A stretch of DNA of 64,000 nucleotides. Source: Verrucomicrobiia bacterium (GTDB lineage: Bacteria > Verrucomicrobiota > Verrucomicrobiia > Palsa-1439). Positions 6,751 to 54,759 of this stretch are shown here, in pieces; position 1 is the stretch's first letter, and every line of letters begins with the position of its first letter. Both the position numbers and the translations under genes were made by a program. The stretch lies in assembly GCA_052146795.1 (NCBI GenBank), contig JBKQMH010000151.1, positions 1,502 to 65,501 on the forward strand. Reading direction: 5' to 3'. The notes beneath the pieces were generated by a model. It was not told the origin of the DNA, searched no databases, and saw only the letters and a list, made by a program, of their open reading frames with translations.

Positions 6751-6905
6751 GTTGTCACTCTTAGTTGTCACTCCTCATGAAAAAATGAGGCGATTCAGGA
6801 TGACGTGAGAAAAAGAGCAGTCGGCGTGTAGCCTTTAATTTTGCGGCGTTTGATGACTAGGGAGCACGCGAGAGGAAACCAGCGAAAATAGCCCGTTCGT
6901 CTTAT
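6751..6905. repeat. Intergenic repeat R1, copy 1 (tandem GTTGTCACTC x2 + hairpin CCTCAT-N6-ATGAGG + ...GATTCAGGATGACGTGAGA...ACCAGCGAAAATAGCCC)
   Basis: About 90% identical to 9129..9217 apart from a ~60-nt insertion (6816..6875). Confidence 0.7.
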
Positions 6906-6935
6906 GAGTCCCCTGCCGTAGGGATCTGGAACCGG

Positions 6936-6966
6936 AAGGTTCGCAAAGCGTCCAAAGCGAGGAGAG
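6936..6966. repeat. Intergenic repeat family B, copy B1 (core AAGGTTCGCAAAGCGTCCAAAGCGAGGAG only)
   Basis: Shares the 29-nt core with the B2-B5 copies. Confidence 0.6.
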
Positions 6967-8945: not shown

Positions 8946-8952
8946 GTGACTA

Positions 8953-9075
8953 CCCTCGGCACTTCAAACCGCACGGTTCGCAAAGCGTCCAAAGCGGGGA
9001 GCTATCTTCGACCTGACGCAAATGGGGAGCCTTTGCTGAGGGTGTGGGCTGTCGAAGCCCCACGGCGTTCGAGGA
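8953..9075. repeat. Intergenic repeat family B, copy B2 (full length ~120 nt)
   Basis: CCCTCGGCACTTCAAACCGCACGGTTCGCAAAGCGTCCAAAGCGGGGAG...CAAATGGGGAGCCTTTGCTGAGGGTGTGGGCTGTCGAAGCCCC. Aligns with B5 (16783..16900) and B4 (12313..12415). Confidence 0.7.
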
Positions 9076-9128: not shown

Positions 9129-9217
9129 CGTTGTCACTCTTACTTGTCACTCCTCGGTCGAAAATGGGTCGATTCAGGATGACGTGAGAGAAAACCAGCG
9201 AAAATAGCCCTTTCGTA
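9129..9217. repeat. Intergenic repeat R1, copy 2 (compact form)
   Basis: GTTGTCACTCTTACTTGTCACTCCTC...GATTCAGGATGACGTGAGAGAAAACCAGCGAAAATAGCCC. Abuts the stop of the PKD protein gene. Confidence 0.7.
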
Positions 9218-11134
9218 TTACGGCAACAATACGCGCACGCGGTAATACAGGTCGGGACTGGCCGTTACATTCGAGTCCGTCATGCTGGTGATGGTACCGG
9301 AGCCGTTCCCGCCACTGAGAATATTGGTCTGGCCCGTATCCTCCCAACCGCCATTCGTGTAGTCGCCGATGGCGTCACCGGTTGTGTAATCCAGCACGTT
9401 CGTCCGCGACGCAATCCCCGGCATGTAACTGTTGTCCCCGTTGGCGCCAAGATATGTCACTACCACGTTCGTATTCCCCGCCACCAACTGCTCCGCGATG
9501 CTGATAATGTGCAGGTACGCTGCCCCGTTGGTGGCATTGAAGCCCGCCATGAACTTGTTGGTGTTGCTCATGCCGTCGCCCGTGTAGGAGGCGTTCGGAC
9601 CACATAACGCGCAGTTGTTGGTGAGACCGTAGCCCCGCTGCCACCACGCGAATGGATCGTACACGCTGATCAAGTTCACCACCGTGTCCGTACTGGACTC
9701 ACCATTACCGGTCACGATTTCCTGCACGGTGTAGGAGCCCGGATTCACGTAGATGTCCGACGGGTTCTGACTGCTCGACGTGTTGCCATCCCCAAACGCC
9801 CATGCCCAGCCTGTGGGCGAGCCGGTCGAGGTATCGTAAAAATACACAGTCAGTGGCGCCGGCCCGCTGGCGGGATTGTTCGTGAAACTCGCCACCGGCG
9901 GCGGGGGTGTCGCACTGCGGACCACAATGTAGTTGGGCTTGGTGTTGGTGTTGGACCCGCCAAGGCCGCTGACGATCAAACTTACCTGGTTGCTGCCCGT
10001 CGTTTGATAAACGTACTGAACGCTCGTCGCCGTGGTGTTCGTGGTGCCACCATCCCCAAAGCTCCAGAACCGATTGGTAATCGAGCCGGTCGACGTGTCT
10101 GCGAACGTCACGGTCAGGGGTGCGGACCCATTGGTGGGACTGCCGCTGAAAAGGGCCGACGGCGGACCAACCGATCCCAGGCTCGAGAGACCCAGCGTGA
10201 CCAATTCGTAGGCGGCCGGCACATTCGTGGTTTGGCCGGCCGTCATCCCCGCAATGTTGTTGGATACCATCAACATATCGGTGCGGTTCAGCGCGTTGAC
10301 CGTCACCGCCTGATTGGAAACCAGTCCTGACGCCAGTCTCGCCGCGTAGGTATTGGTAATGATCCGGCACCGCACCGTTACCGGAACATTCGAAGGCATC
10401 GGGCTGGTCGGTTGGAACCAAAAGAAACTGCTGACAAAATCATTCGTCAATCCCGACATCGCGATGCCCTGCCATTGGGAGTAATTAATGTTCGGGCTTA
10501 CCCAGGTGAACATCAGGTGGCTGCCGTCGGACAACACGGTGGCGATCATTCGATCGAACCCGTTGAACAGCTCCTTTTCATAGGTGGTGGATTCGGTAAG
10601 GGCATAGGCGTCGTTCGTGATGTTCGCGTGGTAGTCGCTGTCGAAGACAAAGGTGCCGGAGCCGGCGTTCCATGTGTCCACCTCGGTTATCGGGTGGATC
10701 TCATACTGCCGTTCCCCCTGGTGCTCGGTATAAAAGCGAAAGATCCCGTGCGTTCTGCCCTGATCCGTATTTAGCGTGTTCAGATGGGAGACCTGGGCGG
10801 ACGTCACGTTGATGACTTCGGTGTGGATCGGTGAGTAACCTGAGTTGGAGCCGGTCTTGCCGGTACCAGACGAATTGATGGCCATCTCGATATCCTCATC
10901 GCCATCGGAGTTGATGGAACCGCTGGGGAACAAGAACTGCCACAAATTCGTACCGCCGCCGATCGATGGGTACTGCGCGTTGGCCAACGGGGAAATCTGG
11001 AGGCTGTCCACCTCCCACAAACTGGCCATCAGATTGACTTCAGCAAAGGTATTGGTCATGATCGTCTGTGCACGGACCACCCCGGCACAGATAAACAGAG
11101 CGACCCCAGCCAGCACGACCTTTTTCGTCACCAT
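9218..11134 (-). CDS. Secreted PKD-domain protein (two PKD domains)
   Basis: Signal peptide MVTKKVVLAGVALFICAGVVRAQ. Two PKD signatures (PLTVTFADTSTGSITNRFWSFGDGGT and PLTVYFYDTSTGSPTGWAWAFGDGNTSS). Thr/Ser/Asn-rich. Confidence 0.7.
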   Translation of the reverse strand: MVTKKVVLAGVALFICAGVVRAQTIMTNTFAEVNLMASLWEVDSLQISPLANAQYPSIGGGTNLWQFLFPSGSINSDGDEDIEMAINSSGTGKTGSNSGYSPIHTEVINVTSAQVSHLNTLNTDQGRTHGIFRFYTEHQGERQYEIHPITEVDTWNAGSGTFVFDSDYHANITNDAYALTESTTYEKELFNGFDRMIATVLSDGSHLMFTWVSPNINYSQWQGIAMSGLTNDFVSSFFWFQPTSPMPSNVPVTVRCRIITNTYAARLASGLVSNQAVTVNALNRTDMLMVSNNIAGMTAGQTTNVPAAYELVTLGLSSLGSVGPPSALFSGSPTNGSAPLTVTFADTSTGSITNRFWSFGDGGTTNTTATSVQYVYQTTGSNQVSLIVSGLGGSNTNTKPNYIVVRSATPPPPVASFTNNPASGPAPLTVYFYDTSTGSPTGWAWAFGDGNTSSSQNPSDIYVNPGSYTVQEIVTGNGESSTDTVVNLISVYDPFAWWQRGYGLTNNCALCGPNASYTGDGMSNTNKFMAGFNATNGAAYLHIISIAEQLVAGNTNVVVTYLGANGDNSYMPGIASRTNVLDYTTGDAIGDYTNGGWEDTGQTNILSGGNGSGTITSMTDSNVTASPDLYYRVRVLLP

Positions 11135-11657: not shown

Positions 11658-11861
11658 AAATCGGCTCGTCTTTGCTTCGTGGTACATAGCTGCGAAGTGT
11701 AGCAAGTTTCCGTGGCCAAGCAAGCGCCCGTGCGGGATACCGGTCGCACTTCAAACCAGGCGCACGGGTACTATCGGTTCGGCACTACCCCATGAGGATT
11801 CGGCGTGAGCGGGCCGGTGGCAGCTGATGCCATCGCCCTTGCGCCGCCGCCTGCCGGATTC

Positions 11862-11915
11862 CCTTCGTCATTTCAAATCGCAGGGTTCGCAAACCGTCCG
11901 AAGCGGGAACTCCTT
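11862..11915. repeat. Intergenic repeat family B, copy B3 (partial)
   Basis: TTCAAATCGCAGGGTTCGCAAACCGTCCGAAGCGGGAACTCC. Confidence 0.55.
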
Positions 11916-12271: not shown

Positions 12272-12312
12272 ACCACATGGTGGAGCGAACTGACGAGCCG
12301 CTACGCGGTAAT

Positions 12313-12415
12313 CCTCGGGAGTTCAAACCGCAAGGTTCACAAACCGTCCGAGGCGAGGAGCCGTTTTGTTTATACGGCACAATTGGGAAACCTCGGCTGA
12401 GTGTGTGGGATCGTT
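12313..12415. repeat. Intergenic repeat family B, copy B4
   Basis: CCTCGGGAGTTCAAACCGCAAGGTTCACAAACCGTCCGAGGCGAGGAG...CTCGGCTGAGTGTGTGGGATCG. Retains the CTCGG/CCGAG inverted repeat. Confidence 0.65.
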
Positions 12416-12488: not shown

Positions 12489-14456
12489 ATGTCTGGGGGT
12501 ACTACGGCACTCGGGTTGTCTGAGGTTGCGGAACCCGCGGCCTCACCGCACCGATGGAAGACCATCCTTGGCGGTGGGATGATTGTCCTCGCCGCTCTGG
12601 CGGCCTACCACAACAGCTTCGCAACGCCATTTCTCTTTGATGATCTCGCCTCGGTTGAGAAAAATCTGACCATTCGCCATCTCTGGCCGATCTGGAAAGC
12701 CCTGTCGCCGTCCGCCACTTCGCTCGTGGGAGGTCGCCCGGTCGTGAACCTCTCTCTGGCCCTCAACTATGCGCTGGGGGGGACGGGCGTGTGGGGTTAT
12801 CACGCGTTCAATCTGAGCGCGCATGTTCTGGCGGGCTTGACGCTGTATGGCATCGTGCGGCGGACATTCTTGAGCCCGTTGTTGCGGGAACGATTCGGCG
12901 CGGCGGCCGAGTGGGTAGCTCTGGCGGTGGCGGTCATCTGGACGGTTCATCCGCTGCAGACGGAAGCAGTGACCTACATATCCGAACGTTGCGAGTCGTT
13001 GATGGGGTTGTTCTACCTGCTGACGGTGTATTGCTTCATTCGTGGGACGAACGCCCAGAGATCGGTCTGGTGGTTCACCTTGTCCGTGGCCGCGTGTTTC
13101 CTGGGCATGGCGAGCAAGGAGGTGATGGTGACGGCTCCCGTGATGGTGCTGCTGTATGATCGGACGTTTGTCAGCGGGAACGTTCGGGAAGCATGGACTC
13201 GACATTGGCGCCTGTATCTGGGGTTGGCCAGCAGTTGGCTGTTGCTGGGCTGTTTGATGGCCGATTTGCACAACCGCGGTGTCGGCTATGGCTTGGGGAT
13301 TGCGTGGTGGGGCTATGCGCTGATGGAATGTCGAGCGGTGGTGCAGTACCTCCGGCTCGCCGTTTGGCCGCATCCGCTGATTTTGGATTACGGAGAGTAT
13401 GTGCCGACAGGGCATCTGGCGGCGGCACCGTACGTACTGATTCTGGCGGCCCTGGCAACCGGCGTTTTGTTCGCGCTGAAGCGGTACCCAGCCATCGGGT
13501 TTGTTGGGGCCTGGTTTTTCGTGATTCTGGCTCCGACCTCCAGCGTGGTGCCGATTGGGGGATCACCGATGGCGGAACACCGGATGTACCTGCCGCTGGC
13601 ATCCGTGGTTACGATGACCGTGGTCGCCGCGTTTGCGCTCGGGAAATGGCCGTTACATAAGCAGCAGGGTGCCGTACTGGGATGCGTGGCGGGTGGTTTC
13701 GTGGTGGTGCTGCTCACATTCCTCACAATCCAACGGAATCGGGACTACAACTCGGCGGTGACCATCTGGCAGGACGCTGTGGAGAAACGTCCCAACAACC
13801 CCCGTGCCCACTACAATCTGGGGGTCGCCTTGGGGCCAGCGGGGAAAATTGACGATGCCGTTGAACACTATGAACAGGCGCTACGGATCAAGCCGGATTA
13901 CGCCGAGGCACACTACAATCTGGGGGTTGCCTTGGGGCAACTGGGCAAGATCGACGATGCCATTGAACACTATGAACAGGCGCTGCGTTTCAACCCCGAT
14001 TACGCCGATGCGCACGACAACTTGGGGACCGCCTTGAGGCAAGTGGGCAAGATTGACGATGCCATTGAACAGTATGAGCAGGCCCTGCGGATCAAGCCCG
14101 ATTTTGCCATGGCGCACTACAACCTCGGGAATGCCTTGAGGCAAGTGGGCAGGATTGACGATGCCATCGTCCATTACCAGCAGGCCCTGCGGATCGAACC
14201 CGATTTCGCCGACGCGCACAACAACCTGGGGACCGCCTTGGGGCGCGCGGGCAGGATACCGGAGGCGATAGAGCATTTGCAGCAAGCGCTGCGGATCAAG
14301 CCCGATTTCGCTGAGGCACACTGCAACTTGGGGATCGCCTTGGGGCAGGCGGGCAGAACACCGGAGGCGATAGAGCATTTGCAGCAGGCGCTGCGGATCA
14401 AGCCCGATTTCGCCCAAGCGCAGAACGCGCTGGCGCGACTGCAAGCCCGCCAGTGA
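12489..14456 (+). CDS. TMTC-like protein, paralog of 7020..8945 (membrane domain + TPR array)
   Basis: Same LAAYHNSFATPFLFDD...IRHLWPIW signature. Colinear with the first copy. C-terminus nearly identical (ALRIKPDFAQAQNALARLQARQ*). Alternative start MIVLAAL at 12579. Confidence 0.7.
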   Translation: MSGGTTALGLSEVAEPAASPHRWKTILGGGMIVLAALAAYHNSFATPFLFDDLASVEKNLTIRHLWPIWKALSPSATSLVGGRPVVNLSLALNYALGGTGVWGYHAFNLSAHVLAGLTLYGIVRRTFLSPLLRERFGAAAEWVALAVAVIWTVHPLQTEAVTYISERCESLMGLFYLLTVYCFIRGTNAQRSVWWFTLSVAACFLGMASKEVMVTAPVMVLLYDRTFVSGNVREAWTRHWRLYLGLASSWLLLGCLMADLHNRGVGYGLGIAWWGYALMECRAVVQYLRLAVWPHPLILDYGEYVPTGHLAAAPYVLILAALATGVLFALKRYPAIGFVGAWFFVILAPTSSVVPIGGSPMAEHRMYLPLASVVTMTVVAAFALGKWPLHKQQGAVLGCVAGGFVVVLLTFLTIQRNRDYNSAVTIWQDAVEKRPNNPRAHYNLGVALGPAGKIDDAVEHYEQALRIKPDYAEAHYNLGVALGQLGKIDDAIEHYEQALRFNPDYADAHDNLGTALRQVGKIDDAIEQYEQALRIKPDFAMAHYNLGNALRQVGRIDDAIVHYQQALRIEPDFADAHNNLGTALGRAGRIPEAIEHLQQALRIKPDFAEAHCNLGIALGQAGRTPEAIEHLQQALRIKPDFAQAQNALARLQARQ

Positions 14457-14492
14457 GTGGCAGGCTCCCGTGTATCAGTTCGGAGGTTTGGA

Positions 14493-15149
14493 ATGGATAT
14501 CTCTTTCTCGTGTGCCGATTGCGGTCAAAAGCTTGTCGTCGATGAATCGGGCACCGGTCTGGTTGTCCCGTGTCCGACGTGTGGGCATAATCTTACGATT
14601 CCTGCTGCCCCAACTCTTGCGGGAACGACTTCGAGAAAACCGTCAGCGACAAGCGCCGCAACCTCATCGGCGGGTCCAAGCAAATCCAATTGGCAGCCAA
14701 AGATTCCCAAGGCCGAGAAATGGATGGTTGCACTGGGGGGCGCGTTGCTCGGCATCGGATTGTTAGGCTTCTTCGGCTACACATTCTACGGCAGGCTGTC
14801 GCAGAAAGATCCCCCGGCTCTGCTGAAACAGCACGTGGCGACCATGCAGGAGACGTATGCCGGGCTTTTTCATGCGAAGATTGTCGAGTGCACCTATGAT
14901 GTGCAGAAGACCGACTCTCTGGTCTCCCCCTATATCGGGTATGTGAACTACACCGAAGACATGGGCAAAGGCGCGATGGCGAAATACAAAATCACCCTAG
15001 CATTTCAAGACGGTGCATGGGTGTTACAGACTGTACAGAGGCAGTTTGTCTGGGCGGGAGGCTCAAGCTCTTGGAAAGAAATTTTGCCTTCCGATGACAC
15101 CGCCAGTAGCGCTCCGTTCCGGGTGGTTAAGCATGCCCTCGGACTGTAA
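14493..15149 (+). CDS. Zinc-ribbon (CxxC...CPTC) membrane-anchored hypothetical protein
   Basis: MDISFSCADCGQKLVVDESGTGLVVPCPTCGH, one TM helix, then a C-terminal soluble domain. GGAGG 6 nt upstream of the ATG. Confidence 0.5.
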   Translation: MDISFSCADCGQKLVVDESGTGLVVPCPTCGHNLTIPAAPTLAGTTSRKPSATSAATSSAGPSKSNWQPKIPKAEKWMVALGGALLGIGLLGFFGYTFYGRLSQKDPPALLKQHVATMQETYAGLFHAKIVECTYDVQKTDSLVSPYIGYVNYTEDMGKGAMAKYKITLAFQDGAWVLQTVQRQFVWAGGSSSWKEILPSDDTASSAPFRVVKHALGL

Positions 15150-16566: not shown

Positions 16567-16635
16567 TAGCTCGCCGTTCGTTCCGTTTCCTTCAACCATA
16601 GGCCACGCCATTGTCTTCGCTCGGGCATTAGGCTG

Positions 16636-16778
16636 ACGTGCACTACAATCTGGGGGTCGCCTTGGGCCAAGCGGGCAGGATGCCGAAAGCGATCGAGCAA
16701 CTTGAACAGTCGCTAAAACCCCGGCCAATTTTGCCCCGCGACAAACGCGTTGGCACGACTGCAAGCTGGCCACTAAGT
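16636..16778 (+). pseudogene. Orphan 3' fragment of a TMTC/TPR-family gene (last TPR + C-terminus), degenerate
   Basis: Nucleotide similarity to 8800..8945 (CACTACAATCTGGGGGTCGCCTTGGG...GCAAGCTGGCCACTAAGTGG against ...GCAAGCTCGCCAGTAAGTGA), followed by repeat B5 exactly as at the intact gene ends. No upstream membrane domain. Confidence 0.5.
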
Positions 16779-16782
16779 GGCA

Positions 16783-16900
16783 ACCCTCGGACGTTCAAAC
16801 CCCAAGGTTCGCAATTCGTCCAACGCGGGGAGGCATTTTGAGATGGCGCAAATGGGGAACTCCTGCTGAGGGATGTGGCCGTCGAGGCCCACAATTCCAA
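16783..16900. repeat. Intergenic repeat family B, copy B5 (full length)
   Basis: CCCTCGGACGTTCAAACCCCAAGGTTCGCAATTCGTCCAACGCGGGGAG...CAAATGGGGAACTCCTGCTGAGGGATGTGGCCGTCGAGGCCC. Confidence 0.7.
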
Positions 16901-28618: not shown

Positions 28619-28687
28619 ATGAAACGGTCCGTTACCCTGATGTTGAAGGCGAATTTGCCATGTAAGGAGAAGCGGGCCGAATCATGA
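28619..28687 (+). other. 22-codon upstream ORF (MKRSVTLMLKANLPCKEKRAES) translationally coupled (ATGA) to 28684 gene
   Basis: AGGAG 7 nt upstream of its ATG. Its TGA overlaps the ATG of the downstream gene, whose own SD is poorly spaced. Confidence 0.35.
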
Positions 28688-30195
28688 TCTATCCGTTTTG
28701 GGACGAGCCGTTCGGCTACGGGATCTTGATGGCGATCATCGCGGTGCTGCACGTCTTCGTGTCGCATTTCGCCATCGGCGGCGGGCTGTACCTGGTCGTC
28801 ACCGAGCGCCGGGCCACAAAAGCCGGTGACCAGGCGACGCTGGAATTTTTACAGCGACTGAGCCGGTTCTTTGTCCTGATCACGTTGGTTTTCGGCGCGC
28901 TGAGCGGCGTGGGGATTTGGTTTGTCATCGGTCTGCTGAACCCGGCCGCCACCGAGGCGCTGATCCACAACTTCGTCTGGGGCTGGGCCATTGAGTGGAC
29001 GTTCTTCGTCGTCGAGATCACCGCCGCGATTGTCTATTACTACGGTTGGAACAAGCTGGCGGCGCGCGAGCACCAAATCGTCGGGTGGATCTATTTCATT
29101 TTTGCGTGGCTGTCGCTGGTGATCATCAACGGCATCATCACGTTCATGTTGACGCCCGGCCGATGGCTGCAGACCGGGAATTTCTGGGACGGTTTCTTCA
29201 ATCCGACCTACTGGCCGTCGTTGGTGATGCGAACGGGCGTATCGCTGATGCTGGCCGGCCTGTATGCGCTGCTCGTCGCGGCGCGTTATCCCGCCAGCGA
29301 TTTCAAGGCGCGCACGGTGCGCTACACGACAACGTGGGGCATCGTGGGCCTCGGTGTAACCGCGCTGTCGGAGTGGTGGTATTGGAATGCCATCCCCGCG
29401 GCGATCACCACCAAGGCGGCGCAGATCATGGCGACGCCGATGCACGCGATGCAGTATACGGTCTGGCTGGCCGCCGTCATCGGCGTGCTGTTGGTGGTTT
29501 TTGGGTGGTTGGCGGCGCGGCGGCTGCCGACGGCGGTTGCGGCGATATTGATGGTGCTCGGGCTGGCTTGGTTTGGTGCGTTTGAATCGTTCCGCGAATC
29601 GGTCCGCAAACCGTACATCATCACCGGCTACATCTATGGCAACGGCGCGGAGCTGGCCCGGGCCGGGACCTACACGAACGCGGGGTTCCTCGCCCAGATA
29701 AAGTACACGACCGGCGACGAGGGGGCGGATTTGTTCCGGCATTCGTGCCGAAGCTGTCACACGCTCACCGGCTACAAGGCGCTGAAGCCGGCATTCGACG
29801 GCACGGACCGCGCGTTCATCGGGGCGATTGTTCGTTCGACAAACCTGCTCAAGGGTAACATGCCGCCGTTCCTCGGCACGCCAGCCGAAGCGGACAAGAT
29901 CGCGGATTATCTGTACCAGCAAATCGACAAGCGGCCACTCGGCGAGGTGTACGGTTTGCAGGGCGAAGCGCTCGGTCGGAAGGCGTACGACATCCGCTGC
30001 GGCAAGTGCCATATTTTGGGCGGGGCCAGCGACAAATCGAAGTCGTTCGCCGGTCAGGGCCCCGACGACCTCAACGCGATGCTCGATATGAGCGCCGATC
30101 TCGGCAAGGGGATGCCCGCCTACACCGGTAGCGGCCCCGAGCGCGCGGCGCTGGTCGCCTATCTTCAGAAACTCGGCAAACAGGTCAAAAAATGA
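28684..30195 (+). CDS. Polytopic membrane protein fused to C-terminal dihaem cytochrome c domain
   Basis: About 9 predicted TM helices with conserved His (AVLHVFVSHFAIGGG). C-terminal soluble region with two CxxCH (CRSCH, CGKCH). Paralogous to the next gene. Confidence 0.6.
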   Translation: MIYPFWDEPFGYGILMAIIAVLHVFVSHFAIGGGLYLVVTERRATKAGDQATLEFLQRLSRFFVLITLVFGALSGVGIWFVIGLLNPAATEALIHNFVWGWAIEWTFFVVEITAAIVYYYGWNKLAAREHQIVGWIYFIFAWLSLVIINGIITFMLTPGRWLQTGNFWDGFFNPTYWPSLVMRTGVSLMLAGLYALLVAARYPASDFKARTVRYTTTWGIVGLGVTALSEWWYWNAIPAAITTKAAQIMATPMHAMQYTVWLAAVIGVLLVVFGWLAARRLPTAVAAILMVLGLAWFGAFESFRESVRKPYIITGYIYGNGAELARAGTYTNAGFLAQIKYTTGDEGADLFRHSCRSCHTLTGYKALKPAFDGTDRAFIGAIVRSTNLLKGNMPPFLGTPAEADKIADYLYQQIDKRPLGEVYGLQGEALGRKAYDIRCGKCHILGGASDKSKSFAGQGPDDLNAMLDMSADLGKGMPAYTGSGPERAALVAYLQKLGKQVKK

Positions 30196-31217
30196 ACCTC
30201 CCCGATTACGAATTTCTTTCCGCGCCGCTCTGGCTGATCACGGTCCTGCATGTGTTGACGCTGACACTGCATTTTGTGGCGATGAACTTCCTGTTCGGCG
30301 GCGTCATCATCACACTGTACGCGGCGGTCCGGCGGCGCTGGGATGATCCGACGCTGAAAAAGTTTGTGCGGCTGTTCCCCAGCGCGATGGCGGCGACGGT
30401 CACGCTTGGCGTGGCGCCCTTGCTGTTCCTGCAGATGGTCTATCCCAAGCAGATGTACGCGGCGGCGATCGTGAGCGGCTGGTTCTGGCTGCTGATTATC
30501 GCGGTGGCCATCGTCGTCTATTACGCGCTGTACCGCTGCGCGTTCAAGGCCGAGCGGACGGGTCGGATCAGCCAGGCAGCCCTGGGGCTGGCGTTGCTCG
30601 GACTGCTCTACATCTCGCTGACGTACAGTTCCGTATTCTCGATGGCGGAACGGCCGGGCCAGATTCACAGCCTGTACGCGCAGGATCAATCCGGCTGGAT
30701 GTGGAACCCCGCGGCAGGCGATTACGTCTTGCGCTGGCTGCACATGATGCTCGGCGCGGTCACGGTCGGCGGGTTTTTTGTCGGGATGATTGGACGCGAC
30801 GAGCCGGCGGCGTTCGCGTTGGGCAAACAGTTTTTTGTGGTCGGCATGGTGTTGGCGATGGTGGCGGGGATGGCCTATCTGCTGACGTTGCTGCCGTATC
30901 TGGAGGCGTTCATGCACACGCCAGCGATCTGGGGACTGACGGTGGGCGTGCTGCTCTCGCTCGGGTCACTGCATTTCTTCTTCAAGCGGAGATTCTGCGA
31001 GTCGGGCACGATGTTGTTCGTCTCGATGTTGACGATGGTCTATGCCCGGCACACCGTGCGGCTGTTGAAACTGGCGGCCCAGTTCGACCCCGGTACCTGG
31101 CACGTCGCCCCGCAATGGTCGGTGTTTATCCTGTTCCTGATCTGCTTTGTCGTGATGCTGGCGGTGGTCGGCTACATGCTCCGACTGGTCTTCGGTGCGA
31201 AGCGCGGCGCATCGTAG
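30192..31217 (+). CDS. Polytopic membrane protein, paralog of the membrane domain of 28684..30195 (no cytochrome c domain)
   Basis: LITVLHVLTLTLHFVAMNFLFGG aligns with MAIIAVLHVFVSHFAIGGG of the upstream gene. 4-nt overlap (ATGA). Confidence 0.5.
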   Translation: MNLPDYEFLSAPLWLITVLHVLTLTLHFVAMNFLFGGVIITLYAAVRRRWDDPTLKKFVRLFPSAMAATVTLGVAPLLFLQMVYPKQMYAAAIVSGWFWLLIIAVAIVVYYALYRCAFKAERTGRISQAALGLALLGLLYISLTYSSVFSMAERPGQIHSLYAQDQSGWMWNPAAGDYVLRWLHMMLGAVTVGGFFVGMIGRDEPAAFALGKQFFVVGMVLAMVAGMAYLLTLLPYLEAFMHTPAIWGLTVGVLLSLGSLHFFFKRRFCESGTMLFVSMLTMVYARHTVRLLKLAAQFDPGTWHVAPQWSVFILFLICFVVMLAVVGYMLRLVFGAKRGAS

Positions 31218-31238
31218 TGTGGGCGTCTTTCTGCGATA

Positions 31239-31249
31239 TGTCGCTTAGC
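31239..31249. repeat. 11-bp direct repeat TGTCGCTTAGC (left flank of low-GC cassette)
   Basis: Identical 11-mer at 32839..32849, exactly 1600 bp away. Confidence 0.4.
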
Positions 31250-31339
31250 GATATATCATGGATGGCGCGCGGGCTGTGGTGCGCATGTCATGATTATAGG
31301 TCTGACCCCGATTACTCTAACGGCGTCAGGTCTGCCGTG

Positions 31340-31918
31340 CTATTTGGAGGGTTTCGGTTTGGTTGTTGGAGGCTTTTGCGGAGCGGCTGGCTTCGTGGGC
31401 GGCTTACTCGATGAGGCTGCTTTAGGTGAGCTATTGGCGACCTTCAGTTGCTGTTGCATTAAAGTTTGGAATTTGAGGCTGACTCCTGCGTCTCTTAGGA
31501 GCTCCCCTAGACACTTTTCTAGCGCCTCGCGATTCGAACACTGGTGTTCCGCACCACCCCAAGTCACGGTGCAGGGGTAGCCGTTTCTGTGCTGCTGCCA
31601 CCTCGCCAGCTCATAGACCGTGCTTCCTCCGGCCTTTGGATTCCTAGCAATGATCGCCCAGTAACGCTTTGGCTCTGATGGCGGGCGAAGCATAGCAGCT
31701 CCGATTGCAGCCAGACCAGTAAGAGGCGGCTCAACCTGTTGCTCAACGCGGACGTCGATCGCTCCCTTACTAGCTGCAGATACATCTTTGTTGAGTTGCG
31801 ACAGGACGGCCTTAATCTCGTTTCGTGCTGCGGTCACCTTATCTGCAGCGGTTTGCCCTTGGGCAAAGTCGCCTTTGAAGTCTCTCATCCTTGTTTTCCT
31901 TTCAGTTGAGTCTCTCAA
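31340..31918 (-). CDS. Hypothetical protein with Lys/Pro-rich C-terminal tail (low-GC cassette)
   Basis: 192 aa, no recognisable domain. 17-nt overlap with the upstream EEP gene. About 45% GC against ~63% in the flanks. Confidence 0.45.
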   Translation of the reverse strand: MRDSTERKTRMRDFKGDFAQGQTAADKVTAARNEIKAVLSQLNKDVSAASKGAIDVRVEQQVEPPLTGLAAIGAAMLRPPSEPKRYWAIIARNPKAGGSTVYELARWQQHRNGYPCTVTWGGAEHQCSNREALEKCLGELLRDAGVSLKFQTLMQQQLKVANSSPKAASSSKPPTKPAAPQKPPTTKPKPSK

Positions 31919-32861
31919 TGACGCTTATGACAGGGAAATGGTCAAATTTGACTGCTGTATCCTGGACTAGGGCATCTAGTGGCGGCAATCGGAGAATTCT
32001 CGTTTCACGCTCATTCAGTTGCCAGCCCCCTGGCCTCAAAAACGACGAAGAGAACATAATCTGATCAATAGTTCTCCAATGTGTTCTTGGGTCAGAATCA
32101 CAAAAGCATGTCCCGCCAAAGCTCTTGGTTTGCTTGTCTGAGGCATACGGGTGAGACTCGCCAAGGTGCCGCCAAAAGGGATTATAGAGAAAGTTAGTGC
32201 TGGACCGGGCGAGCTCCCTATCCCGCGTCGCCAGAAGACGCTGAGCTAATGACGCATCGAATGGTTCGTCATTGTAATCCCCGAGAAGGATAATGGCGGG
32301 CTCGACGACGACTTCTCTAATGTTATCGACGGCATTTCTCAACTCGACCCCCAAGTCTTCCCGTTTAGGGGTATTGATCCCCAGAACGCGACTTGGCCAG
32401 TGCGACACCAAAACGTGCACCGAAGACTGGGACGAGGGGATGAAGAATTCGAGCTTGTTCGCGACTTTCAGCGAGCCCGTTCCCTGATCGCCAATGAGTG
32501 CTACCCCTCCCTGTTTTATGAGTCTCGTGCCATTGTAGATGACCCCAGTGTTAAACTCCAGGCCATCAGCCTTAGTGCCATCGAATATGTCGTGATGGGC
32601 AAGGGCACATTGATCACACAAGCGGCCAAGATCTTTGATCGAGACCTCGCCCAATGCCAAGCAATCGACAGCAAGATCTCTCAACAAGAACTGCACGACC
32701 TGAACCGCGACTTGTTTCTGCTCTTTTTCTTGAGCTCTCCTGACGCGGGGCGGAGACAAACTCGTGTTCCACCAAGCAAAGGTCAGTCGCTCAAGCTGCG
32801 GGCTCTGCTTAGAACTTGGCGTTGCTAATTTTGCTGTTTGTCGCTTAGCCATTGCATACAA
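31902..32861 (-). CDS. Endonuclease/exonuclease/phosphatase (EEP) family protein (low-GC cassette)
   Basis: EEP motifs: LTFAWWNTS (N-terminal Mg-binding strand), LLGDYNDEP, IDQIMFSSS, DHFPV. Confidence 0.65.
   Translation of the reverse strand: MYAMAKRQTAKLATPSSKQSPQLERLTFAWWNTSLSPPRVRRAQEKEQKQVAVQVVQFLLRDLAVDCLALGEVSIKDLGRLCDQCALAHHDIFDGTKADGLEFNTGVIYNGTRLIKQGGVALIGDQGTGSLKVANKLEFFIPSSQSSVHVLVSHWPSRVLGINTPKREDLGVELRNAVDNIREVVVEPAIILLGDYNDEPFDASLAQRLLATRDRELARSSTNFLYNPFWRHLGESHPYASDKQTKSFGGTCFCDSDPRTHWRTIDQIMFSSSFLRPGGWQLNERETRILRLPPLDALVQDTAVKFDHFPVISVIERLN
32839..32849. repeat. 11-bp direct repeat TGTCGCTTAGC (right flank of low-GC cassette)
   Basis: See 31239..31249. Confidence 0.4.
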
Positions 32862-33067
32862 GCGTTAAGTTCAACTGATTTCGATTGCCCGCGGAGCTAC
32901 GTGCCGTCGCCCTGACCGCAACTCAGGGCGTGCCCAGTTCCTGCAGAACAGTCGCTAGAGTTTACACATTTAGTGATTTTTGCACAAGCGCAGTTGGTCG
33001 TCATGGGCGAAATGCGGCGGGCGCAGGGGTGGCACAAAGTGATTGCCAGACGCGGCCAATTACCGGT

Positions 33068-35074
33068 CTACGACACGCCGAACGCACGCAGGCCCTGAAA
33101 GACAAGCAGGGAAGCGACGTAGGCCAGGACCGTCATGTAACCGAGTTGGAAGACGGGCCATTTGAGGCTGTTGGTCTCGCGGCGCGTGATGGCTTGCGTC
33201 GCCAGACATTGCATCGCCAGGACGTAGAAAATCAACAGGCTCGCGCAGGTGGCGGTTGTGAACACTTTGGCGCCGTTGGACCGCTGGGCGCGGCGCAGGG
33301 AATCGTAGAGTGATTCCGGGTTTTTCTCGGCGGCATTCTCCCCCACCCCGTACACGACGGCCAGCGTCGAGACCACGACTTCGCGCGCGGCGAAGGAACT
33401 GACGATGCCGATCCCGATTTGCCAGTCGAACCCCAGCGGGCGGATGGCAGGCTCGATCCAGCGCCCGAGATGGCCCGCCGCCGAGTTCGCCAGCGCGGAA
33501 TGACTGATGAGCCGGCCCGCTTGTTCCTGCAATTCGTCGGCGGCCGGCCCGGTCAGTTTCGCGGCCTGTTGCTGCAAGGCGACGGCTTCGGGAGGCGGCG
33601 CGCTCTTGGGATAGGTGGCCAGCGCCCACAACGCGATGGAAATCAACAGAATCACCGTCCCGGCTTTTCGGATAAAGACCCACGCGCGATCCAGCATCAG
33701 GAGGATTGCCGTCCGCAGGCTCGGCAACTTGTAACTCGGCAACTCCAGCACCAGTGGATGCGTTTCGCCCTTCAAGATCGTGTGTTTCAGCGCCAACGCC
33801 GCGACAATCGCCGCGACCAGACCCAGCACGTACGCGCCGCTAAACACGAGCGCCGCTTTCCACGCGTCGTGCGCGAACAACAATGCCGCCAGCATGCTGT
33901 ACACCGGGATCCGGGCGGAGCAGGACACGAGCGGCAGGACGAGAATCGTCACCAACCGGTCCCGTTTATCTTCGATGACGCGGCTGGCCATGATGGCCGG
34001 GATGGCGCAGGCATGGGCGGAGAGCAACGGCACAAACGCCTTGCCCGGCAGACCCACGCGTCGCATGAGCCGGTCCATCACAAACGCCGCGCGCGCCAGA
34101 TAGCCCGTGTCCTCCAGCAACGAGAGACAGAAGAACAGAATGCAAATCTGCGGCAGAAACACCAGCATCCCGCCCAGGCCGCCGATGCCTCCCTTGACGA
34201 GGAGGCTGCGTACATCGCCCGCCCCCATGTGTTGTTCGATCCATGAACCGAGATGGCTGAACAAGCCGTCGATCAAATCCATCGGGATCTGCGCGATGCG
34301 GAAAATCAGGAAGAACACACCCAGCATCACCCCGAAAAACACCAGCACCCCGATCACGGGATGCGTCAACACGGCGTCCAGCCGCTCCGTCCACGGCTGC
34401 GTCACCCGCGGCAAACGCTCGACGCAGTGCCCGACGATCGCGTCCGTCCACGCGTAGCGGGACTTGAACCGGCAACCACTGCATCCGGCGCACATCGGCA
34501 CCGCGGACACAGGCGCCGGCGCGGTCTTCAAGTGTTCGATGGCGCGGCGCAGTTCGCCCAGCCCGCGGCCGGTGCGCGCGACCATCGGTATGACCGGGCA
34601 GCCGAGCGCCCGCGCCAGCTTTACGGCGTCGATGCGGACGCCAGCCGCCTCGGCGAGGTCCATCATGTTGAGGGCGACCACGACCGGGAGTTTCATCTCG
34701 ATAATCTGGCTGACGAGAAACAGGCTCCGACTCAGGTTTGTCGCGTCGGCCACGACAATTGCCGCGTCCGGCCTGCCGGTCTTCGGGGATCGGCCGGTGA
34801 TCACATCCACGGCAACGCGCTCTTCCTCCGATATCGCCTGGAGATCGTAGCACCCGGGCAAATCAATGATTTCGATGGTTTCATCCCGCACCGAGAAGTG
34901 GCCGACCCGGCGCTCGACGGTGGTGCCGGGATAATTCGCCGTCTGCGCGCGCAATCCTGTCAGGGCATTGAACAGCGTGGTTTTCCCGCCGTTCGGGTTG
35001 CCGGCCAGGACGAGCCGGTACGTGTCCTGCGACACGGCTTTCGCCGGCGGACAACAGGATGCCGTGGCACTCAT
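33068..35074 (-). CDS. feoB: Ferrous iron transporter FeoB
   Basis: G-domain (GNPNGGKTTLFNALTG, DLPG), GDI domain, and two gate-motif membrane halves. Start at MSATAS (35074); the track ORF N-extension overlaps feoA. Confidence 0.9.
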   Translation of the reverse strand: MSATASCCPPAKAVSQDTYRLVLAGNPNGGKTTLFNALTGLRAQTANYPGTTVERRVGHFSVRDETIEIIDLPGCYDLQAISEEERVAVDVITGRSPKTGRPDAAIVVADATNLSRSLFLVSQIIEMKLPVVVALNMMDLAEAAGVRIDAVKLARALGCPVIPMVARTGRGLGELRRAIEHLKTAPAPVSAVPMCAGCSGCRFKSRYAWTDAIVGHCVERLPRVTQPWTERLDAVLTHPVIGVLVFFGVMLGVFFLIFRIAQIPMDLIDGLFSHLGSWIEQHMGAGDVRSLLVKGGIGGLGGMLVFLPQICILFFCLSLLEDTGYLARAAFVMDRLMRRVGLPGKAFVPLLSAHACAIPAIMASRVIEDKRDRLVTILVLPLVSCSARIPVYSMLAALLFAHDAWKAALVFSGAYVLGLVAAIVAALALKHTILKGETHPLVLELPSYKLPSLRTAILLMLDRAWVFIRKAGTVILLISIALWALATYPKSAPPPEAVALQQQAAKLTGPAADELQEQAGRLISHSALANSAAGHLGRWIEPAIRPLGFDWQIGIGIVSSFAAREVVVSTLAVVYGVGENAAEKNPESLYDSLRRAQRSNGAKVFTTATCASLLIFYVLAMQCLATQAITRRETNSLKWPVFQLGYMTVLAYVASLLVFQGLRAFGVS

Positions 35075-49819: not shown

Positions 49820-50673
49820 GGCCGCTCCGTCGGGTTCCGTGTCCGCCAGCGAACCACCGCGCTCAGGACCAAGCCGACACCGATGACCACAAATGGCACC
49901 TTCGAAATGGCCTTCCACGTCAGCGATGGCAGCGGATCCTTTGGCAGGCCGCGCGGGAACCCGAGATCTTCCGGCGCGGTATCGGACAAGTACAACCACG
50001 ATGTGCCACCGGCAACGTCTTCGCCGTATAGCGACGTGTAGCGGTTCGGTTGCGTGTCCAGCCGGGCCTTCGCCTCCTGCAACAACTCGCGGCGTTTCCC
50101 AAACTTCAGCGTGACGGTCGGACACGCGGCGACGCAGGCCGGGGATTGGCCTTTCGCCTGACGGTCGGCGCAGAAATCACATTTGGCGACGCGCGGCATG
50201 AACGCGTTGTTCCACTCGTACTTCGGCACACCGAACGGACAGGCCAGAATGCAGTAGCGGCAGCCGATACAGATGCTCTCGTTGTAAACGACCGGCCCGC
50301 TCGCGGTCTTCTCCAATGCCCCGACGGGGCAGACCGACACACACGCCGGGTCCAGGCAGTGCATGCATTGCCGTTTCACCGGCTGTTTGGGTTTCGTGTT
50401 CCCGTCCCGGAAATCGATGAACGTCCGCGTGCGAAAACTCAGTTTGCCGTCGCCGGCGCCGTAACCAATTGCTTCGGTGGGAAGGGCATCGAAGCCCGCT
50501 CGTACCCGGCAGGCGTTCTCGCAGGCCCGGCAGCCGATGCAGCGCGTGAGGTCCACCAAGACGCCGGCCGATGCTGACGGCTCAACCGGCGATTCCGCGA
50601 GAAGGGCGCGAGCAGACGCGATCGTCAACGCGCCGGTCGCCGCGGTCTTGAAGAATTGTCGACGGGAAATCAT
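49816..50673 (-). CDS. Tat-exported 4x[4Fe-4S] ferredoxin subunit (NrfC/PsrB/HybA-like) with C-terminal TM anchor (module A)
   Basis: MISRRQFFK twin-arginine signal. Four Cys clusters (CIGCRACENAC, CMHCLDPACVSVCP, CIGCRYCILACP, CDFC...CVAACP). Confidence 0.85.
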   Translation of the reverse strand: MISRRQFFKTAATGALTIASARALLAESPVEPSASAGVLVDLTRCIGCRACENACRVRAGFDALPTEAIGYGAGDGKLSFRTRTFIDFRDGNTKPKQPVKRQCMHCLDPACVSVCPVGALEKTASGPVVYNESICIGCRYCILACPFGVPKYEWNNAFMPRVAKCDFCADRQAKGQSPACVAACPTVTLKFGKRRELLQEAKARLDTQPNRYTSLYGEDVAGGTSWLYLSDTAPEDLGFPRGLPKDPLPSLTWKAISKVPFVVIGVGLVLSAVVRWRTRNPTERP

Positions 50674-51587
50674 CGCGGCGGCTCCCCGTGTTTCTTTCGG
50701 CGGAAATGCGGCAACGCGACGCCCAGAAAAATGCCCAACAGGAACGACAGGCCGACCACGGGCGGAAACACGCGGCGGTTGGCCGCGAGTATCTCGCGCA
50801 ATTTGGCGGTTTCCGTTTCCAACTCAGTGAGACGCGCCTCGAGTTTTTCCGGTGCGACCGCTTTGAGTCGGTGGACCTCTTCTTCTAGCGTGGCGTTTTC
50901 GTGGCTCGCGTGCACCATATCGCGGTGGCAATTGGCGCAGGTCTCGGCACCGACGCCGAACGTGTGGCCGCGCACGCCGAGGCCGCGGGTCTTCATACCG
51001 ACGCCCTTCACCTCGGGCATGTGACAGCTCAGGCAGTGCAGGCCTTCAATCGCGTGGGTCGCATGGGAGAAGTCCTTGAGCCGTTCCGTGTGGCAGGTGC
51101 CGCACATTTGGTCGGGCTGGTCTTTGTGCAGTTGCATCCCATGCATCTTGTGGCAATCGAAACAGCGGATGTTCTTCTGGCCGTGCGCACTGACCCGCCA
51201 TTCGCCATAGGTAATGGCATGGCAGCTTTGGCACACTTCGGACGTGACGGGCAGCGTCAACTTCGATTTGTCCGGGTGATCGTCCTTCATGACGCCGTGG
51301 CAGGACTCGCAACTGACACCGTCATGCGAAACCTTGCCCGATTTCGGGTCGGACCGGCTGGTGTGGCAGACGAGGCATTCCCATTTCTTGCCCTCGGTCG
51401 TCCACTCGTTCAGGAACATGTCGTTTATCGTTTGGGCGTGGGGCGAGCCCTGCCAATCCTTCACCTCCTGCTCGTGGCACAGCGCACACCGCTCGGATTC
51501 TTTCTCTTCACCCTGTGCGCGCACGGCGGTCGGCACGAGTGCCAGCACGGCTGCAAGGACAATCACGGTTTGTCTAGGAAGACACAT
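50670..51587 (-). CDS. Octahaem cytochrome c with C-terminal TM anchor (module A)
   Basis: 8 CxxCH in ~250 aa; coiled-coil then hydrophobic helix at the C-terminus. Confidence 0.85.
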   Translation of the reverse strand: MCLPRQTVIVLAAVLALVPTAVRAQGEEKESERCALCHEQEVKDWQGSPHAQTINDMFLNEWTTEGKKWECLVCHTSRSDPKSGKVSHDGVSCESCHGVMKDDHPDKSKLTLPVTSEVCQSCHAITYGEWRVSAHGQKNIRCFDCHKMHGMQLHKDQPDQMCGTCHTERLKDFSHATHAIEGLHCLSCHMPEVKGVGMKTRGLGVRGHTFGVGAETCANCHRDMVHASHENATLEEEVHRLKAVAPEKLEARLTELETETAKLREILAANRRVFPPVVGLSFLLGIFLGVALPHFRRKKHGEPPR

Positions 51588-52878: not shown

Positions 52879-53737
52879 GCACAAGCCTCCGGTTTCGCAA
52901 CCGGTAAATCCCGCTGAGCACCAGTGCCAGCGTGACCACCACGATCGGCACCTTCGAGAGCGCCTTCCACGTCAAGGATGGAAGGGCGACCGACGGCAGG
53001 TCAGTGCGAAACCCCAGTTGGTCCATGGGCACGTCCGAGAGGTAAATCCACGCAGTGCCGCCGACCACCTTGTCGCCGTAGATCGAGACGTAACGCTTGG
53101 GATTGGCCGATAACCGCAGCAGCGCTTCGCGCAGAATCTCCGGCCGCTTGCCAAACCTCAGTGTGCCGGTGGGGCACGCCGCCACGCACGCCGGCACCCG
53201 GCCGTCAGCCACGCGGTCGTCGCAGAAATCACACTTGCCCACGCGCGGCGTCACCCCCTCGTTCCATTCGTAGCGAGGTACGCTGAACGGGCAGGCAATC
53301 ATGCAGTAGCGGCACCCAATGCACCGCGACGCCTCATACACCACCGAGCCGCGCGGCGTCTTGTGCAACGCCGCCACTGGACAGGCCGAGACGCACGCTG
53401 CATCCAGACAGTGCATGCATTGTTTCTTGACGGAGAATCTGGTCTTGGCGGCTGGCTGACCGTGCGCCGTCCGAAAGTCCACAAACGTCCAGGTTGTGAA
53501 CGAGAGCCGACCTTCGCCGGGACCGTAGCCGAAACCCTCCGTTGGCAGGCCCGGCCGGTTCTGGCGCACCCGGCAGGCATTTTCACAGGCGCGGCAGCCG
53601 ATACAGCGGGTCAGGTCCACCAACACGCTGGATTGCTGGTCCGGATTTACCGGCGGTTCGTCGGCCGTGGCGCGCACCGGCAACAGTATCGCTCCCAACC
53701 CCGCCGCGCCCGTCGTGAGAAATCGGCGGCGCGACAT
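52871..53737 (-). CDS. Tat-exported 4x[4Fe-4S] ferredoxin subunit (module B)
   Basis: Starts MSRRRFLTTGAAGLG (ATG at 53735..53737). The 562-aa track ORF is an out-of-frame N-extension. Paralog of 49816..50673. Confidence 0.85.
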   Translation of the reverse strand: MSRRRFLTTGAAGLGAILLPVRATADEPPVNPDQQSSVLVDLTRCIGCRACENACRVRQNRPGLPTEGFGYGPGEGRLSFTTWTFVDFRTAHGQPAAKTRFSVKKQCMHCLDAACVSACPVAALHKTPRGSVVYEASRCIGCRYCMIACPFSVPRYEWNEGVTPRVGKCDFCDDRVADGRVPACVAACPTGTLRFGKRPEILREALLRLSANPKRYVSIYGDKVVGGTAWIYLSDVPMDQLGFRTDLPSVALPSLTWKALSKVPIVVVTLALVLSGIYRLRNRRLVHV

Positions 53738-53838
53738 TCCCCCGGGGTGGTCATTCTGAGCGCGGGGAAGAAGCTTTGGATCGCCTCCCTTGTGGGGATC
53801 TTCGCTTCGGTCAGGGTGAAAGACTGGAAAAGCGGCGT

Positions 53839-54759
53839 TCATTTCGACAGTCCCTCCCTCGTAGGTTTCCGACTGCGGCGATGGACCACGGCGTACTCGA
53901 TGGCCACGCCGAGACAAAAGGCCACAACCACGATTACGGAGAACACCCGTCGGTTGGCCCGCACCGCCGCGCGCAGTTGGTCGTTTTCCTTCCGCTCGTC
54001 GGTGACCTGTTTCTGCAGTGTTTCCGGAGTCATCTCCTTGAGGCGCTGCACCTCGCTCTCCAAGACGGCAATGTCGCTGCGGCTGTGCACCATTTCCTTG
54101 TGGCAAATGGCACAGGTCTCCGCGCCAACACTGAACGCGTGCCCGCGCGCGCCGGTCCCCTTGATCTTCAGCCCGGCGTTCATCACCTCCGGCATGTGGC
54201 AATCGATGCACTTCACGCCCTTGACGTGATGGGTCGCGTGCGAGTAGTCCTTCAACCGTTCCGTGTGGCAGGTGCCGCACATTTGGTCCGGGTCGTCCTT
54301 GCGCAGCTTCATCTCGTGCATCTTGTGGCAGTCGAAGCAGCGGATGTTCTTCTGGCCGTGACGGCTGATACGCCACTCGCCGTAGGTAATGCTGTGACAG
54401 GACTGACACGTCTCGGCGGTCACGGGCAACAGCTTCTTCACCTTGTCGGGATGGTCCGCAGTCGCCGGCCCGTGACAGGACTGGCAACTCACGCCGGCAT
54501 GAGAGAACGTGCCGGTCTTGCGGTCGTACTGGCTGGTGTGGCAGACGAGGCATTCCCACTTCTCACCTTCCTGGTCCCACTCGGCGAGAAATCGGCTGTT
54601 GATGGTGTGCGCGTGTGGCGAGTCCGTCCACTCTTTCGTTTCCTGCTCGTGGCAGAGGGCGCAGGTGTCGGATTCCTTTTCCTCGTCGGCCCCCCACACG
54701 GGCGCCAGTGGGACGAGCGTCACCAGCAACGCCGCAACCATCAATTCGGAGCGAGTCAT
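53839..54759 (-). CDS. Octahaem cytochrome c with C-terminal TM anchor (module B)
   Basis: Start at MTRSELMVAALL (signal peptide). 8 CxxCH. Paralog of 50670..51587. Confidence 0.85.
   Translation of the reverse strand: MTRSELMVAALLVTLVPLAPVWGADEEKESDTCALCHEQETKEWTDSPHAHTINSRFLAEWDQEGEKWECLVCHTSQYDRKTGTFSHAGVSCQSCHGPATADHPDKVKKLLPVTAETCQSCHSITYGEWRISRHGQKNIRCFDCHKMHEMKLRKDDPDQMCGTCHTERLKDYSHATHHVKGVKCIDCHMPEVMNAGLKIKGTGARGHAFSVGAETCAICHKEMVHSRSDIAVLESEVQRLKEMTPETLQKQVTDERKENDQLRAAVRANRRVFSVIVVVAFCLGVAIEYAVVHRRSRKPTREGLSK

Follow-up and report, generated by a model that had tools for sequence, protein, structure and literature searches.

In this work, we describe a pair of genes carried by a block of foreign DNA in a 64,000-nt stretch (hereafter, the window) of the metagenome-assembled genome of a Verrucomicrobiia bacterium (GCA_052146795.1, contig JBKQMH010000151.1, positions 1,502 to 65,501 of the forward strand). 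The block, of about 1.8 kb, was acquired horizontally into a hotspot between the gene of a 341-aa membrane protein and feoB, and its cargo is a conserved, predicted two-gene operon. The first gene would encode a cytoplasmic, metal-dependent phosphodiesterase or nuclease of the EEP fold with a complete catalytic set, and the second a small, putatively alpha/beta protein from a large family, almost always found after the first. Our data establish the foreign origin of the pair, its location in a hotspot, the strict pairing of the two genes, their carriage by phages, plasmids and islands, and the intact catalytic site. Because of these features taken together, we lean toward the view that the pair is a module for defence or exclusion, borne by mobile elements and built as toxin plus regulator. 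The parts of the block discussed below are the following, with positions in the window.

31218 to 33000, no strand assigned: accessory block, lodged in the hotspot that separates two convergent core genes (feoB and the gene of the 341-aa membrane protein)
31236 to 31265, plus strand: 30-bp element ATATGTCGCTTAGCGATATATCATGGATGG, what is left of a small element located downstream of the gene of the 341-aa membrane protein
31239 to 31249, plus strand: left copy of an 11-mer, TGTCGCTTAGC, within the 30-bp element, which is older than the cassette
31340 to 31888, minus strand: partner gene, 182 aa, ATG at 31888, with a 150-aa core and a 32-aa tail
31889 to 31901, minus strand: 13-nt intergenic spacer AAGGAAAACAAGG, with a Shine-Dalgarno-like AAGGA...AAGG read from the sequence
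31902 to 32852, minus strand: gene of the EEP-fold enzyme, 316 aa, ATG at 32852, a putative Mg2+-dependent phosphodiesterase/nuclease and presumed effector
32839 to 32849, plus strand: right copy of the 11-mer, corresponding to codons 2-5 (A-K-R-Q) of the EEP gene
32853 to 32886, minus strand: 34-nt conserved leader upstream of the EEP start, at the end of which DNA homology with a copy of the module on a JGI contig (L001) stops

A preliminary description, made from the letters of the window alone, had proposed at this place two overlapping minus-strand genes, for an EEP-fold enzyme and for a 192-aa protein with a Lys/Pro-rich tail and no recognisable domain. Both genes are present on the minus strand, but they do not overlap, being separated by the 13-nt spacer. 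The second protein has the tail and no domain, as described, but its length is 182 aa rather than 192 aa, because all 27 aligned family members, from which the start codon was set, begin with M-x-D-[FY]. The surroundings had been correctly read: no recombinase adjoins the cassette, a cytochrome-type membrane pair lies on one side and feoB and feoA lie on the other.

The assignment of the first protein to the EEP fold also held, with matches above cut-off to PF19580 (45.6 bits against a cut-off of 27, E=6e-12), which places it in the EEP superfamily, and to PF03372 (25.8 bits against a cut-off of 24.5, E=1e-5). It further matches phrog_24714 (E=3e-27), and at least 553 EEP homologues, each about 300 aa long, come from a wide diversity of bacteria. 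Its AlphaFold2 model (pLDDT 85) is a four-layer alpha/beta EEP sandwich with 257 structural matches in the PDB at E≤1e-3, and the top-ranked ones are all EEP enzymes, that is, TDP2, nocturnin, ANGEL2 and 3mpr, an uncharacterised Bacteroides EEP protein. The nearest solved structures have a TM score of about 0.58 and 12-16% identity. Sequence searches of the PDB gave no usable hit for either protein of the pair (the best was nocturnin, E=0.02), and we found no significant sequence match to solved EEP enzymes, ExoIII and APE1 included. Among 37 homologous sequences, no variation is seen at E69, H151, D192, N194, D263 and H305, and little at N29 and D304 (at least 90% conserved). With catalytic roles assigned by motif position, not by structure superposition, the complete set of EEP metal-binding and catalytic residues appears to be in place at the canonical positions. 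Since these residues are invariant or nearly so, the enzyme is presumably active. It shares with TDP2, nocturnin and ANGEL2 the four-layer fold and the full residue set, but it belongs to a distinct bacterial and phage subfamily (PF19580, phrog_24714) with an obligate partner gene.

A comparable arrangement is found in the cytolethal distending toxin, in which CdtB is an EEP-fold DNase that comes with the partners CdtA and CdtC, so that there too a putative nuclease of EEP type has partner protein(s) of its own encoded with it. The Cdt subunits, however, are secreted and have signal peptides, and the Cdt partners are lectin-like. By inspection of their sequences, neither protein of our pair has a hydrophobic or twin-arginine N-terminus, and the partner family is unlike the Cdt partners. 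The earlier suggestion of a secreted nuclease is therefore not upheld, as nothing resembling a signal peptide begins either protein.

The second protein had been described as unknown, and a single-sequence search with its 192-aa version returned only two relatives, which proved misleading. The genes downstream of EEP genes at three loci (including Geobacter pickeringii) share with it the motifs NP, ELARW and GYPC. A profile search then gave 28 proteins of the family, and an exhaustive hidden Markov model (HMM) search gave 823 cluster representatives, 544 of them at E≤1e-10; the protein is thus no orphan. These roughly 800 clusters are distributed among Proteobacteria, Desulfobacterota, Verrucomicrobiota, Zixibacteria and Spirochaetes. 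The protein consists of a conserved alpha/beta core of 150 aa, with NP, LA.W and GYPC as the invariant motifs of the family, and a lineage-specific, disordered, Lys/Pro-rich tail of 32 aa. Such a tail is present only in the window protein and in its closest relative, the other members being tailless or having a short acidic tail, and it cannot be counted among the features of the family.

No match to the partner was found in Pfam, NCBIfam or PADLOC, and no DNA-binding domain was detected in it. Its fold weakly resembles the frataxin and chaperone folds, with no confident relative. We considered a role as DNA-mimic inhibitor and discarded it because the family is not markedly acidic (median isoelectric point of 6.4 and net charge of 0). 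Fusion proteins were also examined as hints to function, and they were set aside because the additional parts of two family members (P0160 and P0278) are either a helical stretch of no informative value or probably the result of read-through into ParA.

The association between the two genes was assessed in 44 viral and 80 metagenomic EEP loci, of which 85 scored at subfamily level for EEP, were complete at the 3' end and had enough sequence downstream for a partner. The partner lies directly downstream of the EEP gene and on the same strand in 84 of these 85 loci, with a gap of −12 to +27 nt between the two genes, suggesting that the pair forms an operon that is often translationally coupled. 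More distant EEP genes (score below about 130 bits) are mostly found without the partner. Clustering of 301 neighbouring open reading frames revealed no conserved third gene. L001, an unrelated contig, has the same pair, with 77% nucleotide identity, and the homology detected by blastn is confined to positions 31337-32886 of the window. The neighbours of the pair in L001 are, on one side, an integrase, a 119-aa protein and an AbiJ_NTD4 protein and, on the other, a G2P-type replication protein. Two adjacent and apparently co-transcribed genes on mobile elements are also what type II toxin-antitoxin (TA) systems present.

The composition of the cassette points to a foreign origin. GC content between the two 11-mer copies is 53.0%, the lowest of any 1.6-kb stretch in the window, against 61-65% in the flanking genes and a window mean of 59.8%. 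The low-GC segment reported in the preliminary description is therefore real, although the value given for it (about 45%) was too low. GC content at third codon positions (GC3) is a sharper signal of foreign DNA than overall GC, with 0.54-0.57 in the two cassette genes compared with 0.74-0.85 in neighbouring genes. The compositional break had been placed exactly at the repeats; instead, the foreign DNA spans from about 31218 to 32989-33000.

The same site was compared in relatives by blastn and by eye, after a scan of one genome per species, with the upstream 341-aa membrane protein as query, that returned 11 loci. In a relative with about 89% nucleotide identity (L014) the site is empty, and the 341-aa gene and feoB converge with a 62-bp spacer between them, while a closer relative (L006, about 96% identity) has the cassette at the same site. 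Three other loci carry different cargo: 5.6 kb with two DDE transposases and one further uncharacterised protein (L009), 4.7 kb with a NACHT NTPase, a 593-aa uncharacterised protein and a rhodanese (L011), and other low-GC3 genes, among them an APH-family kinase (L008). An empty site in one relative and other cargo in several thus mark the interval from the 341-aa gene to feoB as a variable, cargo-swapping hotspot between core genes. The horizontal acquisition proposed from the start thus finds support in the empty site of L014, in the alternative cargo of L009, L011 and L008 and in the atypical codon usage of the cassette. As in defence-island hotspots between core genes, what occupies the site in relatives is nothing, a NACHT NTPase, insertion sequence (IS) elements or the pair; it differs from them in having no integrase or obvious att site, and in its sharp edges with no identical flanking tract.

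At positions 7963-11696 of L011, the NACHT-domain NTPase (633 aa) and the adjoining 593-aa protein, which has no Pfam match, are a possible NLR-like defence pair.

The comparison with L006 provided further information on the movement of the block. Positions 31218-33000 of the window and 7157-8945 of L006 differ at five sites in 1,783 bp (99.7% identity); the flanks show 10-15 differences per 250 bp (4-6% divergence) up to both edges, which are sharp. This pattern indicates that the block probably spread laterally, and recently, into the same site of two diverged lineages, and it suggests the precise lateral spread of a 1.8-kb unit without its own recombinase. Neither a recombinase nor terminal repeats were found for the block. 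The identical flanking tracts expected from replacement by simple homologous recombination were not found at the edges of the block against L006, so that an exchange of this type is not clearly supported. An integron gene cassette was considered and appears unlikely, as there is no intI beside the site, no GTTRRRY core was seen by eye in 31218-31339, and the 3' hairpin has a z of only −1.2.

Two of the five differences are single-C insertions in the EEP gene of L006, at the window equivalents of 32215 and 32368, which would shift the frame between them; they are either long-read homopolymer errors or the mark of an inactivated copy. In another, otherwise near-identical strain (L003), about 39 differences are concentrated in the 3' half of feoB (window equivalent 33500-34137), and its feoB appears to be a recombination mosaic, which would imply active homologous exchange in the population.

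In the preliminary description, the cassette was delimited by two identical 11-mers, possible insertion scars. The 11-mer does occur exactly twice in the window and at a distance of 1600 bp. An insertion, transposon-like or site-specific, that duplicated this 11-bp target would account for an 11-mer restricted to two copies in 64 kb that brackets most of the low-GC DNA, the more so as 19 of 24 nt match around the copies. Among placements of two 150-bp zones separated by about 1.6 kb, 0.9% have an 11-mer in common, a chance of about 1%, and we regard the coincidence as somewhat unusual but not exceptional. As had been cautioned, repeats of this length are plentiful: the window has 2,499 exact direct 11-mer pairs, mostly from genes with TPR repeats.

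The comparative data speak against such a duplication at both copies. The left copy belongs to the 30-bp element, which L009 carries unchanged and L007 with three mismatches, and neither of these loci has the cassette. Beyond the left copy, homology of the window with both loci persists for 20 bp or more; with L009 it reaches 31269 at the least and, in weaker form, about 31315; therefore, the cassette junction lies well to the right of this repeat. The right copy is coding sequence of the cargo, and the corresponding codons in the L001 orthologue read GCTAAACGGCA, with two synonymous changes. It had been suggested that related genomes be searched for an empty site with a single 11-mer. The empty site exists in L014, but it has no copy of the 11-mer, even allowing one mismatch. 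Finally, the junctions of the block, at about 31218 and 32989-33000, coincide with neither repeat. We therefore reject target-site duplication, to which we attribute only a minimal probability. A circular cassette recombining at the 11-mer was likewise discarded, since the circle would turn the start ATG of the EEP gene into ATC. In our reading of the alignments, the repeats are incidental and had no part in the insertion mechanism. This serves as a caution for scans that use sequence only: an exact 11-bp repeat around a compositional island turned out to be no insertion scar.

The 30-bp element has a history of its own. At positions 6897-7555 of L009, a 443-bp insertion has replaced the final codons of the gene of the 341-aa membrane protein, and after it comes a 108-bp duplicate of the 3' end that this gene originally had. 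The insertion contains a small open reading frame of about 60-88 aa and the 30-bp element, and it looks like the footprint of an element that integrated into the 3' end of the 341-aa gene. Decayed versions of it are found in L006, L007 and the window, partly deleted in L006 and 124 bp shorter still in the window.

The contexts in which homologues of the pair are found are the main source of information on its possible role. Among the 38 loci with at least 3 kb on each side of the pair, a P2-type terminase or portal gene adjoins it in nine, and in five of them the gpA replication gene is on the other side. This position is the gpA-gpQ locus, the place of old and tin in P2, where antiviral systems were shown to concentrate (Rousset et al. 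2022, PMC9122126). Furthermore, most of the tested unknown cargo from the defence hotspots of P4 satellites, companion to the P2 hotspot, was found to be defensive (2026 survey, PMC13586616). In a Vibrio filamentous prophage or inovirus (PQ189352), the pair lies beside a transcriptional regulator, and the accessory-gene hotspot of filamentous Vibrio prophages is reported to be often flanked by such a regulator and to be enriched in defence functions (PMC11630473).

Islands and plasmids also carry the pair. An Acinetobacter island has the order tmRNA, integrase, EEP gene, partner and FRG-domain protein. Non-mobilizable 3.5-kb Klebsiella plasmids of ColE1 type and pEC904, a 3.07-kb plasmid of E. 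coli, carry the pair as their only cargo, and a native pair lies at 1364-2678 of K. pneumoniae pKp202_7 (NZ_CP041089). Complete E. coli genomes gave no DNA match to the pairs of pEC904 or Klebsiella. In Geobacter pickeringii (L017, CP009788, 125130-140038), an island contains an IS, the pair, an nSTAND1 NTPase and a RelE/HTH pair, and at another locus (L018) a ParE toxin gene is two genes upstream of the pair. Some neighbour genes match the PADLOC models AbiLi, AriA, PD-Lambda-5_B, PDC-S32 and PD-T4-4_A. The positions of the pair in phages, plasmids and islands are typical of host-protective cargo and qualitatively those of a defence hotspot, with the P2 locus in 5-9 of 38, the inovirus locus, the integrase-proximal site and neighbours of the AbiJ, AbiLi, AriA and nSTAND types. 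The idea of a minimal two-gene module of defence or toxin type is strengthened by homologues in the P2 hotspot, in the inovirus locus, on 3.5-kb plasmids and beside AbiJ, RelE, ParE and nSTAND genes.

The Geobacter pickeringii island interrupts the nuo gene cluster, between nuoL-like and nuoM/N-like genes.

With the cargo of the P2 gpA-gpQ locus the pair has in common the position itself, occupied in at least five P2-like prophages (with the portal or terminase adjoining in nine), and the format of a small, self-contained module of nuclease type. It is, however, unrelated by sequence or HMM to old, tin, PARIS and the other systems listed in PADLOC, has the EEP fold instead of OLD/TOPRIM and comprises two genes; moreover, the window copy is chromosomal and outside any P2 prophage. 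A known catalogued defence system could be discarded, as the window proteins have no match in PADLOC-DB 2.0 at E≤1 and six homologous pairs, those of Klebsiella, E. coli, Vibrio and Geobacter among them, were also negative, save for a weak, non-significant DpdG match (E=0.009) of the Geobacter partner. NCBIfam has no match for the pair either. In the literature on PF19580, Exo_endo_phos or EEP in connection with defence, we found no description of the pair, although work that is not open access and the newest catalogues may differ.

How the pair would work can be outlined as follows. The EEP effector would cut a nucleic acid or a nucleotide-linked substrate of the invader or of the infected cell, and the partner would restrain the enzyme or sense the trigger. 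The defensive role, the assignment of effector and regulator, and the kind of substrate are what we infer here. The fold of the first protein is already known, as is the overall scheme in which a nuclease-type effector and its small partner travel on mobile elements; the specific pair, absent from PADLOC 2.0 and NCBIfam and with a partner outside any Pfam family, appears to be new. Going one step further, it is conceivable, with slightly less than even chances in our estimate, that the EEP enzyme and its GYPC-motif partner are a previously undescribed and widespread two-gene immune system against phages and other mobile elements. If so, its effector chemistry, that of an EEP phosphodiesterase, would have no counterpart among catalogued defence systems, and it would spread via P2-like phages, inoviruses, islands and ColE1 plasmids; we hold this with the same reserve.

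Several observations weigh against such a role in defence or exclusion. In the window, no further gene recognisable as a defence gene adjoins the pair, and only a minority of the neighbour genes of its homologues are known defence genes, most matching no PADLOC model; the enterobacterial homologues, too, go unmatched in PADLOC 2.0. The partner shows fairly good conservation and is not acidic, unlike many fast-evolving antitoxins and DNA-mimic nuclease inhibitors. Furthermore, the substrate is not inferable, as the phosphoesters on which TDP2, nocturnin and ANGEL2 act differ widely.

As the main rival we see a pure addiction or stabilisation TA module, with the EEP enzyme as toxin and the partner as antidote, which would act through post-segregational killing of cells that have lost the carrier (plasmid, prophage or island) and without an anti-phage role. 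It would account well for non-mobilizable 3.5-kb ColE1 plasmids with the pair as sole cargo, for the tight operon with often overlapping stop and start codons and for the RelE/HTH and ParE pairs in the neighbourhood. Toxin-first TA or abortive-infection pairs, such as RnlA-RnlB and HigB-HigA, have the same layout, that is, the larger enzyme gene followed by a small cognate gene, often with stop/start overlap, as well as the same carriage by plasmids and prophages and the same patchy distribution. Our pair has no homology to them, however, and its partner is relatively conserved and has no recognisable DNA-binding domain for autoregulation. The gpA-portal hotspot of P2 and the inovirus variable locus point instead to anti-phage cargo. 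The two readings overlap in mechanism, and many TA modules are themselves defence systems. On balance, we consider pure addiction unlikely.

A benefit to the carrier element itself, or a counter-defence function, is less probable still. Here the EEP enzyme would degrade a host immune signal, or repair or process the DNA of the element (for example, by TDP2-like adduct removal), with the partner as specificity subunit. The nearest folds (TDP2, nocturnin and ANGEL2) do act on end-linked or nucleotide substrates, and several carriers use HUH rolling-circle initiators (gpA of P2, G2P of inoviruses and the Rep of L001), but the structural similarity is generic at the TM score and identity given above, the pair is also found in chromosomal islands and in theta-replicating ColE1 plasmids without phage genes, and in P2-like phages it occupies a hotspot known for host-protective cargo. 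We find it more improbable yet that the pair is an ordinary accessory metabolic or repair enzyme (a phosphatase or an AP-endonuclease-like protein) with a chaperone-like partner, hitch-hiking without any function in conflict. EEP enzymes are functionally diverse, some database records name the homologues "exodeoxyribonuclease III (xth)", and the partner has its weak resemblance to frataxin and chaperones; nevertheless, none of the solved EEP enzymes, ExoIII and APE1 among them, is significantly matched in sequence, and strict pairing, patchy spread and the status of sole cargo on minimal plasmids and in phage hotspots would be unexpected for housekeeping repair.

Other features of the window deserve mention. 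Two overlapping genes lie at 28684-31217: one encodes a 503-aa fusion of a membrane domain like that of cytochrome bd subunit I with two c-type cytochrome domains, and the other the 341-aa membrane protein, for which no Pfam or NCBIfam match was found. The 503-aa/341-aa pair is conserved across Verrucomicrobiia and in a Binatia metagenome-assembled genome (L016), and it appears to be an uncharacterised respiratory module. Arrays of 102-nt repeats (34 aa, TPR-like) are present in paralogous genes at 8178-8987 and 13689-14396 (also at 16627-16715); most of the surplus of exact 11-mer pairs is due to them, as is the second-lowest-GC region (about 14000-14500). Near this TPR-gene cluster there are five copies of a 52-nt element, with about 67-79% identity and the core GGTTCGCAAAGCGTCCAAAGCG, that may be regulatory or act as a terminator:

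6913 to 6964: 52-nt element
8950 to 9001: 52-nt element
11859 to 11910: 52-nt element
12309 to 12360: 52-nt element
16781 to 16832: 52-nt element

Two copies, 86% identical, of a segment of 64 nt plus 44 nt with the internal tandem GTTGTCACTC...GTTGTCACTCC lie at 6751-6904 and 9130-9220 and may represent a promoter/operator region shared by paralogous genes. Finally, the paralogous segments at 50071-51509 and 53123-54684, with 65-76% identity and about 3.1 kb apart, indicate a probable tandem duplication of a gene set.

For soil Verrucomicrobia, our results document a hotspot flanked by core genes whose cargo turns over between species-level relatives. Should the pair prove to act in defence or exclusion, the bacterial immune repertoire would gain an effector of the EEP fold and a new family of small proteins. 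Tractable native pairs are available in Klebsiella, Acinetobacter and Vibrio, including a 3.5-kb plasmid that carries the pair as its only cargo, and the function of the pair and the role of the partner are therefore directly testable.

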